This document shows, piece after piece, positions 38,704 through 44,108 of a stretch of 59,375 nt of DNA. The stretch covers positions 1-59,375 of the forward strand of contig JAHFKJ010000006.1 in assembly GCA_023245415.1 (NCBI GenBank), written 5' to 3'. Under the pieces are notes generated by a model. It worked only from the letters and a program-made list of their open reading frames with translations, did not search any database and had not been told where the DNA came from. The position numbers and the translations under genes are program-made. The number at the start of each line of letters is the position of its first letter. Within the stretch, counting starts at the first letter, position 1. The DNA comes from Candidatus Gottesmanbacteria bacterium. Its GTDB lineage: Bacteria; Patescibacteriota; Microgenomatia; UBA10105.

Positions 38704-40344
38704 ATGGCAAAACAACTTAAATTTGCAGAAGACGCCAGACAGGCACTCGTAAAAGGGGTCAATATATTGGCCAAAGCAGTCGTAACGACATTGGGACCCA
38801 AAGGCCGCAATGTAGCGATTGATAAAAAATGGGGTGCGCCCAATGTCATTCATGACGGGGTGACCGTAGCCAAAGAAATTGAACTGGAAGATGCATTTGA
38901 AAATATGGGGGCACAGCTTGTCAAAGAGGCTGCTTCCAAGACAAATGATGTCGCCGGAGACGGAACTACCACCGCGACTCTTTTGGCTCAAGCAATAGTC
39001 AACAGTGGCTTTAAAAATGTCACGGCCGGAGCTAATCCGATGATTCTTAAAGTCGGCATGGATAAGGCAGTTGAAGTTATAGTTGCCGAAATTAAGAAGA
39101 TGTCCAAAACGGTTAAAGATACGGATGTGGCTAAAGTAGCAACCATCTCGGCCCAGGATGAGAAGATAGGCGCTTTGATCGCCGAAGCTTTGCAGAAAGT
39201 GGGTAAAGACGGGGTCGTTACAGTGGAAGAAGGTAAAGGATTGGCCATGGAGATTGAATATAAGGAAGGCATGGAGTTTGACAAAGGCTATGCCTCGCCT
39301 TACTTCGTGACCAATGCGGACAAGATGGAAGCAGAAATTGAAAGTCCGTACATCTTGATCACTGACAAAAAAATCTCGTCAATCCAAGACCTCTTGCCAT
39401 TCCTTGAGAACTTTGTCAAAGTTTCGAAGAATCTGGTGATTATAGCCGATGAGATTGATGGAGAGGCATTGGCGACATTGGTTGTGAACAAGCTGCGCGG
39501 AACATTCCAGGTTCTGGCCATCAAAGCTCCCGGATTTGGAGATAGGCGTAAGGAAATGCTGGAAGATATTGCAGTTTTGACCGGCGGCACGGTGATCTCT
39601 GATGACACGGGCAGAAAATTTGACAATGTCACGGTGCAGGATTGCGGCCGAGCTGACAAAGTTTGGGCTGACAAAGAAAATTGCCGGATAATCGGCGGCA
39701 AAGGTGCAGCTGCTACTTTGAAAGCCAGAATTGCGCAAATCAGACGGGCAGTTGAAGATACTACCAGCGACTTTGACAAAGAGAAACTGCAGGAAAGACT
39801 AGCTAAACTTTCTGGCGGAGTAGCGGTCATCAACGTCGGGGCTGCAACTGAGGTGGAAATGAAAGACAAGAAGGAACGCGTCAATGACGCAGTTGCTGCC
39901 ACCAAAGCCGCGCTTGAAGAAGGGATTGTTCCCGGAGGCGGTGTGACCTTACTCAGGTCTCGGCTGTCACTGCTGAAACTGCGAGATAGTCTCACAATCG
40001 CCGATGAAAAAACCGGCGTCGATATCATCTACCATGCGCTGGGCGAACCGGTTCGCTGGATAGCCAAAAACGCAGGTGCTGATGAGGGATGGGTTGTCAA
40101 AAAAATTGAAGAAGCCAAGGGCCAGGATTATGGATTTGACGCGATGACCATGGAATTTCGTTCCATGCTTGACGCAGGCGTTGTCGATCCGGCCAAGGTA
40201 ACCCGCAGCGCAGTTCAAAACGCCACCAGCATAGGCGCTATGATCTTGACGACCGAAGCATTGATCACGGATTTACCGGAGAAAGAGAAAGCTCCAGCTA
40301 TGCCAGGTGGAGGTATGGGTGGCATGGGCGGAATGGACTATTGA
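38704..40344 (+). CDS. groEL: chaperonin GroEL
   Basis: [33 protein letters not shown] and a GGM tail. Confidence 0.99.
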
Positions 40345-40436
40345 GGTCGCAACCGAAATCCTGAGCTTGTCGAAGGATAAAGTTTACAGTAAAAAAAGAA
40401 TTAAAAACCCCTGCGTGCGCGCAGGGGTTTTTGTTG
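40318..40436 (+). repeat. direct repeat copy 1: groEL 3' end + REP-like hairpin + terminator
   Basis: GGTGGCATGGGCGGAATGGACTATTGA is identical at 43981-44007. ATCCTGAGCTTGTCGAAGGAT and AAAAACCCCTGCG-TGCG-CGCAGGGGTTTTT follow. Confidence 0.92.
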
Positions 40437-40461
40437 TTATAATCTATCTAAACTCATTTAC

Positions 40462-41397
40462 ATGGGCAGCAAACAACTCACAATACTCGACGTTTCCACA
40501 TTGTTACCTGGACCGTTTACCAGTTTTTTATTGAATAAACACCTCAATGTTCATGTTGAGAAAATTGAAGATATCAATCATAGTGATCCGCTTGCCCATA
40601 TGCGTCCCACCAAAGATGGAATTGGGCTCGGGTACATGGCAATTAATAAAAATAAACACATCACAAAACTTGATTTTAGAAAAGACGGTATAGAAATCAT
40701 TAAACGAAAAGCTCAATCCTCAGATATTTTTATTGAAAATTACAAACCGGGAAAAGCTTTTAGATTGGGGTTGGGATTTGAGGATTTGCAACAGGTAAAT
40801 CCACATATAATCTACTGTTCATTGACTGGATTCGGACCGTCTCATCCACTCGCCAAAAAATCAGCTCATGATCTCAATATTTTAGCGCTCAGTGGATTTT
40901 TGGATCAGCAACAAAAAATGAGAAGCGCATCCTTCTTGCCGCCTCTGCTTTTGGCTGATTTGTTTACTGCGTATCAGAGCGCCATCAAGATTTTGTCATG
41001 TCTAATCAGTAACTCTCGGGGAATTCATCTAGAAATTTCTATGTATGAAGCTTTTCAAGAAGCGATGATCTTAAATAATTACCCGCAACTTACAACTCAG
41101 GCGGACTTTAATGCAATTGATTATATTATGTCGGGAATGTATCCCTGTTACGGACTATATCAAGCTCGTGACGGATGGGTGGCGGTTGCTGCAATTGAAA
41201 AACCCCTTTGGATTGATTTTTGCCACCACTTGGACCGTCAGCCGTGGATAGACCAGCAATTTGATATGACGCTCACCAAAGATATCGCACTTGTTATGAG
41301 GCAATTTGATCGTGGACATTGGGAACAAGAAAATTTGGATTTTTGTGTGAGTCCGGTGCTTTCTGTGACAGAAGCACAACAGCGGCAGTATGTATAA
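40462..41397 (+). CDS. CaiB/BaiF family III CoA-transferase
   Basis: ILDVSTLLPGPF, INKNK..KLDF, DIFIENYKPG, IYCSLTGFG and AHDLN. Confidence 0.88.
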   Translation: MGSKQLTILDVSTLLPGPFTSFLLNKHLNVHVEKIEDINHSDPLAHMRPTKDGIGLGYMAINKNKHITKLDFRKDGIEIIKRKAQSSDIFIENYKPGKAFRLGLGFEDLQQVNPHIIYCSLTGFGPSHPLAKKSAHDLNILALSGFLDQQQKMRSASFLPPLLLADLFTAYQSAIKILSCLISNSRGIHLEISMYEAFQEAMILNNYPQLTTQADFNAIDYIMSGMYPCYGLYQARDGWVAVAAIEKPLWIDFCHHLDRQPWIDQQFDMTLTKDIALVMRQFDRGHWEQENLDFCVSPVLSVTEAQQRQYV

Positions 41398-43931
41398 ACC
41401 TAATTACTCCTCACTTCTGGCGTATCTTGAAGCAAGTGCCAAGAACTGGCCTGAACGTGAAGCGCTGATTATCCGCAGAAGAATCCGCCGCGAAATCATA
41501 AAATACAGCGAGCTATTGCATGCAATTGCGCAAACTGAGTTTTGGTTTCAGAAAGAAAAAATTCTCCCCAGATCCAAAATTTTATTTTGGTGCCAAAATT
41601 GCCCAGAATATACAGCCGCATTACTCACAAGTCTTTTGACCAATAGAGTCGCCGTGCCTATAGATTGGCGTACCGGGCATGAGACGATTGTAAGGATAAT
41701 TGACAAAACACAGCCGAAATTCTGCTTCATATCAAAATATTTCAAACACGATTTTTTGTTGAATCGTCAAATCAGAGTATTTTATATTGAAGATTTGTTC
41801 ACGCTATTTAAAGCGACTAAAACCCAAGATTTCAAGAGTCTTCTTACTCACAAAAACTACACTGACCCCGAAAATATAGTGGAAATTGTTTTCACCTCCG
41901 GCACTACCGGTAAACCAAAGGGAGTAGTTATGAAGCAGAAGAATATACTAGCCAACTTGCGGGCGGTTGAACTGGCCCTGCCTGATTTAAACAATTCAAG
42001 AACCATCTCTATTTTACCTCTGTCTCACATGCTTGAACAAATCGCCGGTTTACTATTGCCGCTTGGTCATGGAACGTCTATTTATTATTTACCCAGAATA
42101 AATAGTTTCCGACTATTGCAGACATTTTCAGAATATAAACCTACGCACTTAGTTTTTGTGCCGCAAATGTTGAAAATCTTTTGGAACAAAATTGAATCAC
42201 ACGCAAGTACTACAAAACAGTTGGACAAACTTAAAAGACTTATGAATATGACTCAAGTCGCGCCGCGTGGGGTGAAGCGGCTGATTTTTAGGCAAATTCA
42301 TGCACTCTTTGGCGGTCAGTTGCGCTATGTCGCTTGTGGAGGCGCGCCACTGGACGTAAAAATTGCTAAACACTGGGTAGATATCGGCATACCCATAATT
42401 GAAGGGTATGGAGCGACCGAGGTAACCGCGATAGCCACAATTAATACGCTCGAAAAATTGAAAATTGGGAGTGTCGGTAAGCCGCTTCGTGGCGTGAAGA
42501 TTCATCTGAAAAAAGGGGAAATTTATATTCAAAGCGAGAGTGTTTCTTCTGGTTATTTTGCAGATGCAAAAAGAAACAAAGCTTCATTTACACAACTGGG
42601 TTATAAAACGGGAGATATTGGAGAGCTTGACGGTCAGGGATATTTACGGATAGTAGGGCGAGATGTTTTTAAAATAGTTTTGCCCAGAAAAAGTATTTGT
42701 GGAAGATTTGGAATCCAAAATTAGCAACCAAGATAGTGTAAAAGAGACATGTGTGGTGGCAAGGCGTTTGTCCGACGGCGATCAAATTCACGCCTTTTTT
42801 ATTTTGAAGCATAAAGATGCGGATTTAAAAAAAATTGTTGCCCAACTAAACTCGCGCCTTGAATCTAAGCAGCAAATTACCAGTTTCGAGTTGTGGCCTC
42901 AGGCAGATTTCCCCCGCACCCCAACCCTTAAAATAGATCGTAAACTAATGTCTGAACTGGCTAATAATCACATCTCCCGAAAAGCTGTGGTAGCGTCCCA
43001 ACTAAATACCGGGCAACTGTTTGACATTCTGGATGTGGTAAGCAAAGTAAGTAGCTTTCCCAAAGAGCGGATTGTCGACACAGATATTTTGGCAACTGAT
43101 TTAGAATTGGATTCTCTGACGCGGACTGAGTTGGTTTCATTGGCTGAAGAATATTTGGGAATTGTGATTGATGAAGCAAGTATTACCTCTAAAACAACGA
43201 TAGGGGATTTGAAAGATTTATGTAAGCATTCAGAAAATATTGCAGATCTTAAATTACCGGTATGGCAATTTAGCAAATGGGGACAATTTTTTAACCGATT
43301 GGTTATAAGTATGGTGTTGATCCCTTTGCATAATTTTGTAATAAAAATTAACTATCCGCAAATTCACCTTCCCCGCATCAAACCAGGCAGTTTAGTACTT
43401 ATCAATCACCCGGGAATTTTGGACGATATTTGTACTATTCGTCTGCTGTGGAAACAAGGACTCAAGAAGATCACTTCTGCAGCAGTATTTACGAATTGGG
43501 AACCGCGAGACATATTGACCTTTGCGATCGAGTTGTTCGTGGGCGGATTACCGCTATATAAGTCTGGACAAAAATTTACCAAAGTTATGTCGAAATTTTC
43601 TGATCTTTTGGATCAGGGCTACGCATTCATTTTTGCACCCCAAGGCAGAGTTGAAGCTTTCACTGCCATGCATGAAGATCCATTTCTACCCGGAGTAGGT
43701 TATATAGCTAAAGAGTTAAGAAAGCCTATATTTATAGTAAAAGTTAAAGGTTACAAAAAGATTTGGCCCAATACGCCCCAGGGTTGGAGCAAGTCACCAT
43801 TCAGGGAACTGTTGCCAAAACGGCGTGGGACCGTTGAAGTGATTGTTTCAGAAGAAATCAAAGTTGATTATGAAAACTTGAGTCCTATCCAAATTACCAA
43901 TTTACTTGAAGAAAAATACAAAGCAATTTAG
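41390..43931 (+). pseudogene. frameshifted AMP-dependent acyl synthetase-ACP-acyltransferase (Aas-like) fusion
   Basis: FTSGTTGKPKG, EGYGATE and YKTGDIG, then a frame break at ~42685 (KIVLP|EKVFVEDLE). ACP LDSL and PlsC-type NHPGILD and FAPQG follow. Confidence 0.8.
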
Positions 43932-43966
43932 TCTTTTGAAATTTGGGCAAAATTTTCAATAAGGTG

Positions 43967-44108
43967 TGTCAGGCGGAATAGGTGGCATGGGCGGAATGGA
44001 CTATTGATCCGCCAGCCGGCGGAGAAATCCTGAGCTTGTCGAAGGATAAAGTTTTCAGTAGAAAAAAAGAATTAATAACCCCTGCGAGCGCGCAGGGGTT
44101 ATTGGTTG
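43967..44108 (+). repeat. direct repeat copy 2: orphan groEL 3' end + REP-like hairpins + terminator
   Basis: Same sequence as 40318-40436, with TCCGCCAGCCGGCGGA at 44008-44023 and a compensatory AATAA/TTATT stem base. Confidence 0.92.

Follow-up and report, generated by a model that had tools for sequence, protein, structure and literature searches.

The groEL locus and its second tail

The window, by which we mean the whole stretch of DNA analysed here, comprises 59,375 nucleotides of Candidatus Gottesmanbacteria bacterium (contig JAHFKJ010000006.1 of assembly GCA_023245415.1), an organism of the candidate phyla radiation (CPR) whose genome is a metagenome bin of 60 contigs and 1.55 Mb. Our subject is the gene groEL, the 3' end of which stands a second time downstream of the gene, and the two tails, each with a terminator hairpin, bracket a 3.67-kb insert encoding two genes. 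groEL itself is intact (38704-40344, plus strand), lies just behind a groES open reading frame (ORF) that ends at 38606 and is 70-77% identical at the DNA level to groEL of 40 relatives. By sequence comparison and fold prediction, repeat copy 1 extends over 40297-40435 and copy 2 over 43963-44106, both in plus orientation. The repeat unit (~135 nt) begins with the last 15-16 codons of groEL, followed by a dispersed hairpin motif and then a terminator; its copies share 84% identity over 133 columns (E 9.2e-36 in a search of the 1.55-Mb genome), and these are the only two places in that genome where the whole groEL-tail unit was found.

Copy 1 runs from the final 16 codons of groEL, stop included, through GGTCGCAACC, a 31-nt block and an A-rich stretch to its terminator hairpin, and copy 2 from a groEL tail relic (43963-44007) through TCCGCCAGCCGGCGGA and the same 31-nt block to a terminator hairpin of its own. 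Two stretches are identical, namely 27 nt that encode GGMGGMDY plus the stop TGA (40318-40344 = 43981-44007) and the 31-nt block (40355-85 = 44024-54); between them lies a variable block of 10 nt in copy 1 (GGTCGCAACC, 40345-54) as against 16 nt in copy 2 (TCCGCCAGCCGGCGGA, 44008-23), the latter folding as a 6-bp hairpin. A preliminary description of this DNA had reported the 27 identical nucleotides, a shared hairpin block and a repeated terminator; all are present, and the homology reaches further left than it had said. Read in the groEL frame, copy 2 (43963-44007) aligns with the C-terminal residues of groEL, and this truncated tail of 45 bases is preceded by an in-frame TAA. Its divergence from groEL is uneven in that five substitutions and a 3-nt indel fall within the first 21 nt and none within the next 27; four of the five substitutions change the residue (three at codon positions 1/2, plus ATG to ATA).

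The terminators, too, have diverged. Terminator 1 (hairpin 40403-32, 13-14 bp) has A5/T5 arms and the loop TGCG, and terminator 2 (hairpin 44074-103) has AATAA/TTATT arms and the loop AGCG; the preliminary description had called this arm change compensatory and had seen the differing variable blocks, and both points agree with the sequence. Pairing is indeed preserved in the predicted folds, which with two substitutions is an anecdote rather than a test. Terminator 1 is predicted on both strands and would thus be bidirectional (copy 1 fold -31.3 kcal/mol, z -4.2), and terminator 2 is predicted on the minus strand only (copy 2 fold -44.6 kcal/mol, z -5.6). In an Rfam scan of 38000-45000, terminator 1 drew two matches below threshold (30.2 bits vs a gathering threshold of 55, and 22.9 vs 114), which we took as chance.

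Junctions in independently assembled reads

That two strains were joined at the repeat during assembly, the caveat attached to the preliminary description, is hardly credible. The genome is, to be sure, a 60-contig metagenome bin, and compared with read-derived contigs the window lacks 5 nt and has one substitution. Against this stand contigs built independently at k=31 from four groundwater metagenome runs (X1-X4), all four from one study, which bounds the test, and one of which (X1) may be the source sample. These contigs are interrupted only at the shared 31-nt block: X1 contigs span groEL into copy 1 (39382-40384), copy 1 into the cargo (40356-43773) and the cargo end into the relic (43756-44053), and copy 2 is continued into the genes downstream by contigs from X1 (44025-44786) and X3 (44052-44792). 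One X4 contig (40317-40567, 0 differences) passes through the block specific to copy 1 and the shared block into the start of the cargo. Where X2-X4 leave the stretch uncovered, this was not counted as evidence. Moreover, it is cargo that lies upstream of the relic, so no strain's intact groEL ends there. Since independent contigs support every junction and cargo, not groEL, precedes the relic, a two-strain chimera is unlikely, and the contigs of the four runs instead bear out the repeat-insert-repeat structure.

Two cargo genes foreign to the lineage

The first gene of the insert (40462-41397, plus strand) encodes a short family-III CoA-transferase of 311 aa (PF02515, E 3e-46). The second (41390-43931, plus strand) encodes what Pfam resolves as a fusion of an AMP-binding adenylase (PF00501, E 1e-58), a phosphopantetheine carrier (PF00550, E 6e-7) and a PlsC-type acyltransferase (PF01553, 20.6 bits, under the cut-off of 23). 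An HX4D motif defines this acyltransferase family, and NHPGILD is present both in the fusion protein of the window and in the proteins of G062, a genome of the same order. In E. coli Aas, the reference for Aas-like acyl-ACP synthetase/acyltransferase enzymes of lipid remodelling, the domain order is presumably the reverse of that in the fusion, and the protein has no NCBIfam equivalog match.

In the window the fusion gene appears split by a frameshift at 42686/42687. Read-derived contigs of X1 and X4 hold five extra nucleotides behind 42686, which join the two frames, and the restored in-frame reading ...IVLPSGEKVFVEDLE... agrees with G062; hence the fusion gene is intact (~848 aa) and its split in the window an assembly error or a minor variant. 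With this, one of the 'decayed genes' of the preliminary description turns out not to be real. The X1 contig also reads G for T at 41591. Because X1/X4 contigs differ from the window at 42686 and X1 differs at 41591, the window may either hold small assembly errors or represent a minor variant.

G062 encodes a 311-aa CoA-transferase (47% identity) together with one intact 841-aa adenylase-carrier-acyltransferase, preceded by a gene for an AcpS-like phosphopantetheinyl transferase, and the order AcpS-like, CoA-transferase, fusion is found at nine of ten further loci from public genome and metagenome contigs. From the cassette described here the AcpS-like gene is absent, the CoA-transferase starting 26 nt past the repeat; a single AcpS-like gene lies elsewhere in the genome (contig C1), and the cassette is single-copy. 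Immediately behind terminator 1, with 19 nt left to the start of the cargo, lies TGTTATAAT (40435-40443, plus strand), an extended -10-like box that, judged from its sequence, would act as a promoter-like element for the cargo; six of the ten relatives with downstream sequence have a T-run and then GGTAnnnT right behind their groEL terminator. As for function, the domains point to a cargo that probably loads an activated carboxylic or fatty acid onto a carrier domain of its own and hands it on to an acceptor. CPR lineages are thought to depend on their hosts for lipids, and it is of some interest in itself that a compact module combining acyl activation, a carrier and an acyltransferase is scattered among them.

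By its distribution, the cargo is foreign to the lineage. This follows from our findings that a homologue of the CoA-transferase occurs in just one of 86 other genomes of the order, that the proteins closest to it share no more than 61% identity and are scattered over other CPR lineages, and that the AcpS-like gene has been cut off here. In a search across 5.8 billion proteins, the CoA-transferase belongs to a small distinct clade of ~30 proteins of ~310 aa, one member of which is named from a Nomurabacteria bin. Scanning with an alignment of the cargo recovered only one clade member from genome contigs (a Saccharibacteria bin, 41%) and nine clade loci from metagenomes, mostly on contigs of 1.5-3 kb; the viral contigs searched held no cargo relative. 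A donor in which the cassette sits natively behind groEL, as the preliminary description had supposed, was not found, groEL being near a related cassette at none of ten loci, only three of which have flanks of at least 9 kb.

The neighbourhood downstream of the insert

Copy 2 is followed by a convergent toxin-antitoxin (TA) operon on the minus strand (44120-44756), made up by Pfam and family matches of an AbrB/MazE-type antitoxin (44502-44756) and a PIN toxin (44120-44524, its Pfam match just below cut-off), with a predicted sigma-70 promoter at 44793-44765 (minus strand, 12/12); the TA pair of the preliminary description is thereby confirmed. Behind it lies a pseudogene of the endonuclease/exonuclease/phosphatase (EEP) family (44903-45235, plus strand, from its translation), and here the decay proposed earlier does hold: codon 15 is an in-frame TAA, and similarity ends after about residue 110, the 3' part being lost. 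Intact EEP homologues of 246-247 aa occur in G003 and G004, the pseudogene being 68% identical to the 246-aa ORF of G003 (PF03372). In G003, a member of the same family, groEL and the EEP gene are 1.75 kb apart on one contig, which suggests that the EEP gene is a conserved family-level neighbour downstream of groEL.

Compared with relatives, the 3.67 kb is an insertion. Genes downstream of groEL differ among the 11 relatives read. In G003 (contig C34) the space between groEL and the EEP gene holds a different TA pair (a PIN_3 toxin and a short ORF, ribbon-helix-helix-like by eye) and a 213-aa ORF without family match. Variable cargo behind groEL, which the preliminary description had expected among relatives, is thus seen in G003; the repeated tails expected along with it are not, since a degenerate groEL-tail pattern that matches in 70 of 87 genomes of the order (17 have no match) occurs twice in this genome only and once in each of the other 69. 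Because only this genome has two tail matches, repeated tails are not a property of groEL in the lineage. Between the G004 contigs with the groEL end (C80) and the EEP gene start (C49) no overlap was seen, and when the regions behind groEL in G003 and G004 were aligned with the two repeat copies, no usable homology across genera appeared. A by-eye likeness of GCATTGACAG (after copy 2) to the post-terminator flank in G003 was too weak and was dropped.

The same scar at other genes

Our main interest in this locus is the recurrence of the same scar across the genome. A self-comparison that kept direct repeats of 50-400 nt with an identity of 80% or more and with both members on one contig at a distance of 0.3-20 kb found 36 such short local pairs in the 1.55-Mb genome; by the same filter, G007, whose genome is complete and belongs to the same order, has four in its first 800 kb. 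At least seven loci other than groEL share the architecture of a gene end, one to three foreign ORFs and a truncated copy of that gene end. This count excludes repeat pairs situated at the ends of contigs (C13, C24, C29), arrays of tandem paralogues (C1, C14, C41, C43) and, as unclear, the pairs C3 12947/15111 and C60 35518/37933 and intergenic pairs on C18, C30 and C44.

One of these scars lies in the window itself, 5 kb downstream (46521-49717, self-BLAST). A superoxide dismutase (SOD) gene (46523-47140) and a PP2C/SpoIIE-like ORF (47154-47810) are followed by a 368-aa ORF on the minus strand (48231-49337) without family match and then by a relic (49478-49717) in which the first 113 nt of SOD are fused to the last 139 nt of the PP2C-like ORF. 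The fusion point is an 11-12-nt microhomology (shared ATGTCGCAAAT-type), and the two parts align at 82% and 95.7% identity. At purA, two ORFs of unknown family precede a 119-nt relic (87% identity) that runs on in frame to another C-terminus (GFFLMQAGTL* vs GFFIH*), and this relic would look like a resident orthologue displaced by a donor version. Relics of 3' ends also stand behind a Big_13/cohesin ORF (cargo: a 205-aa ORF without Pfam match), an SLT transglycosylase (a DUF3800 gene) and a PEP-utilizers ORF (an AbiEii toxin gene), and relics of 5' ends accompany ruvC (a 414-aa ORF without Pfam match) and a DsbD-like gene (two ORFs, one with an aspartyl-protease match).

As the same scar occurs at other genes of the genome, the process that forms it is not groEL-specific, and the groEL insertion hotspot with repeated tails that the preliminary description had proposed is not borne out. 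The absence of an integrase, in contrast, is: Pfam found no site-specific recombinase and no transposase among the 41 ORFs of the window, nor is there a recombinase on the 59-kb contig, and among the ORFs scanned at twelve repeat-flanked loci from other contigs there was neither a recombinase nor a transposase. Elsewhere in the genome, two tyrosine (PF00589) and two serine (PF00239) recombinase matches lie on contigs C2, C59, C24 and C32.

A dispersed hairpin motif and Y1 transposases

The hairpin core of the tail, ATCCTGAGCTTGTCGAAGGAT, is itself a dispersed repeat, with 19 matches in the genome at up to three mismatches and none for the reversed control. This 21-nt motif is multi-copy, lies outside long ORFs where looked at and in some places forms tandem arrays with a 24-nt period; its stem is just 5 bp by eye (ATCCT/AGGAT), neighbouring bases joining its pairing in the predicted fold. 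Tandem arrays of CCTGAGCTTGCCGAAGGA, of the same family as the groEL-tail motif, lie at C6:4533-4650 (five copies) and C54:1464-1556 (four) of this genome (G000). The viral contigs searched had no copy of the 28-nt motif block. The genome also has seven matches above cut-off to PF01797 (Y1_Tnp), none on this contig; they lie on contigs C26, C18, C28, C38, C60, C34 and C21 and are of the IS200/IS605 or RAYT (REP-associated tyrosine transposase) type. Six of the seven fall within ORFs of 193-234 aa, and the ORF around the C21 match has 64 aa; two of the seven lie within ~1.5 kb of short direct-repeat pairs (C60 8435-8497; C18 19390-19470). A multi-copy motif and seven Y1_Tnp matches in one genome recall repetitive extragenic palindromes (REPs) and bacterial interspersed mosaic elements (BIMEs) with their RAYT partners, with the difference that the motif alone is dispersed here and the whole tail unit is not.

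How the cassette may have arrived

We favour, with about as much belief as doubt, homology-anchored additive recombination with DNA of a close relative, be it homology-facilitated illegitimate recombination (HFIR) or of the Campbell type. The incoming fragment would begin within groEL of a close relative and bring the donor's groEL 3' untranslated region (UTR) with its terminator and two accessory genes. Its left end would have entered by homologous exchange of the RecA type, within groEL or the groEL tail, and its right end, ~31 nt past the cargo stop, by illegitimate joining inside the Gly-Met tail of the resident groEL; the second joint lies within 43932-43963. Alternatively, a single crossover in the tail could have taken in a whole circular copy (Campbell-type) and given the same product. 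Either way, the last 15 codons of the resident gene, its 3' UTR and its bidirectional terminator would have been pushed 3.67 kb downstream to become copy 2, which would still terminate the convergent TA operon, and copy 1 would be the incoming tail, followed by the promoter-like box that may drive the cargo. The product would then read resident 5' part of groEL, donor 3' part with tail and cargo, and resident relic followed by the resident downstream genes. Copy 2 looks resident because it adjoins the conserved neighbourhood and because the convergent TA operon is the only one for which its hairpin is predicted to be a terminator. RecA exchange needs identity blocks of about the size seen (27 and 31 nt), and RecA, DprA and ComEC are present in the genome.

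There are precedents for such a route. Work on Saccharibacteria has shown them to be naturally transformable, with integration by homologous arms (PMC10633639), and a survey of aquifer Patescibacteria proposes competence as a route of gene gain and lists groS among the transferred genes (PMC12455944). HFIR is described as combining one homologous anchor with one non-homologous joint and as adding foreign genes without a recombinase (PMC3240628), and by that description the likeness would lie in a conserved gene serving as anchor, foreign genes placed beside it and the lack of a recombinase. It differs in that we look at a natural scar in an uncultivated CPR-type genome rather than at a laboratory event, and in that the donor apparently carried its own end of the anchor gene, so the resident end persists as a relic. 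Campbell-type insertion-duplication leaves a homologous segment, the insert and the homologous segment again as direct repeats, which is exactly the layout found; unlike in the textbook case, there is no circular form among the contigs, and the homologous segment is only ~140 nt long and 84% identical.

Several points weigh against this reading. Neither a donor nor an empty site nor a same-genus genome was found, so direction and route of the recombination are what we infer, together with the donor and the question of which copy is resident, and they stand apart from what is observed, namely the structure and its junctions in reads, the foreign cargo, the lack of a recombinase and the recurring scar. 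Codon-aligned sliding-window identity of groEL to 11 relatives revealed no clear mosaic and no switch of partner; identity to all 11 falls towards the 3' third, and since all relatives are at most 77% identical overall this comparison has little power. The single ComEC match contains one in-frame stop. Further, the uneven divergence of the relic is not predicted by a simple comparison of donor and resident, and later gene conversion or chance must be invoked. Finally, the control for repeat density is a single genome (the 800 kb of G007), and the count of gene-end scars rests on manual sorting.

The alternative that deserves most thought, unlikely as we hold it to be, is that the ~140-nt tail was duplicated in place by template switching or tandem duplication, with foreign genes later captured between copies that went on to diverge. 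A replication fork might plausibly stall at the strong hairpin terminator exactly behind which the repeat ends, the SOD::PP2C relic testifies to microhomology-mediated joining in this genome, and the substitutions in the groEL relic resemble neutral decay. Yet 16% divergence, a replaced block of 10 vs 16 nt and the indels would need a long time, over which the 27-nt and 31-nt blocks have stayed untouched; moreover, the purA relic, with its different and still open C-terminal extension, is more like an orthologue than a copy, and the SOD::PP2C relic is made of parts that differ strongly in identity (82% vs 95.7%).

Site-specific integration of a small element whose att site is the groEL 3' end, the integrase having been lost or acting in trans, strikes us as improbable, and the att-like integration of the preliminary description finds no support. 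Direct repeats that rebuild the 3' end of a target gene are the classic signature of integrase islands, the flanking repeats here do include the 3' end of groEL, and recombinase matches of both families exist elsewhere in the genome. Islands of this kind, at tRNA or tmRNA genes and at some protein genes, have direct repeats flanking the cargo and leave the target intact, as is the case with groEL. What sets our locus apart is that the contig has no recombinase, that the scars have no common core, each repeating its own gene end, that none of the 69 other tail-matching genomes of the order has a second tail, that cassette and tail unit are confined to one locus in the genome and that the viral contigs hold neither a cargo relative nor a motif copy. 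The mycobacteriophage Bxb1, reportedly, uses a serine integrase to integrate into groEL1 and disrupts the gene; groEL as a target is common to both cases, but here the gene is whole and neither phage nor integrase is present. No joints of an empty site or an excised circle, which the preliminary description had suggested looking for, appear among the contigs of X1-X4; contigs drop rare forms, so their absence says nothing either way. Less probable still, and in our view very much so, is that a Y1 enzyme acting in trans (HUH, IS200/IS605- or RAYT-like) moved the cassette by hairpin-directed single-strand transposition. Seven PF01797 matches in the genome, a dispersed hairpin motif in the tail unit and hairpins in direct orientation at both cassette ends would fit, but the repeat includes groEL coding sequence, and to our knowledge the Y1/HUH mechanism does not duplicate coding sequence such as a gene end. 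Nor do the scars at PP2C/SOD, purA, ruvC and DsbD have an evident hairpin motif by eye, this contig lacks a Y1 gene and the cassette is single-copy.

Hence the cassette is not, to our minds, the product of site-specific integration, and groEL is neither a special hotspot nor an att site. Of the earlier proposal that cargo was added at the groEL end, the insertion and the diverged tails stand, and a homology-facilitated route fits best; the att-like mode and the hotspot are not supported, and a native donor was not seen at any of the ten related loci.

What the scars may tell

Taken alone the locus is of modest interest, being one insertion event for which known recombinase-free routes suffice. 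Most ultra-small CPR/Patescibacteria lineages are not yet genetically tractable, and their gene acquisition has been deduced mostly from gene trees. A readable scar tells more, as it reveals the anchor gene, the end of the foreign DNA and that no recombinase was involved, and it offers a concrete and testable route of gene gain, that is natural transformation followed by homology-anchored recombination. We tentatively, and with more doubt than confidence, extend this to the genome at large: for most of its accessory genes this ultra-small bacterium may depend on homology-anchored capture, without a recombinase, of its relatives' DNA in pieces of 1-4 kb, with at least eight scars still readable in 1.55 Mb, each as the truncated end of a neighbouring gene, and hairpin-rich tails may favour the points of breaking and joining. 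In that case, gene gain by transformation in CPR would leave a natural footprint that can be counted, namely the gene-end relics, and should the recurrence hold in other genomes, such events could be tallied simply in metagenome bins.

Other repeats and minor observations

Upstream of groEL, the groES-groEL spacer (38621-38712) has two hairpins followed by GGAGG and occurs once in this genome; in the genomes of relatives, several other places resemble parts of it at 77-96% identity, and it may be a conserved leader element. Further from the locus, the window holds a perfect 63-nt direct repeat with a gap of 10 nt (20637-20699 = 20709-20771, together 20637-20771) inside the 5' part of a leucyl-tRNA synthetase-like ORF (18455-20842, minus strand), and its positions 15302-15506 (205 nt) are 94% identical to C18:7851-8055 of G000. 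On contig C32 of the same genome, two 93%-identical copies of a small ORF, GIY-YIG-like by eye, lie 4.5 kb apart (44063-44328 and 48807-49072), one being a whole 88-aa ORF and the other the start of a 162-aa ORF.

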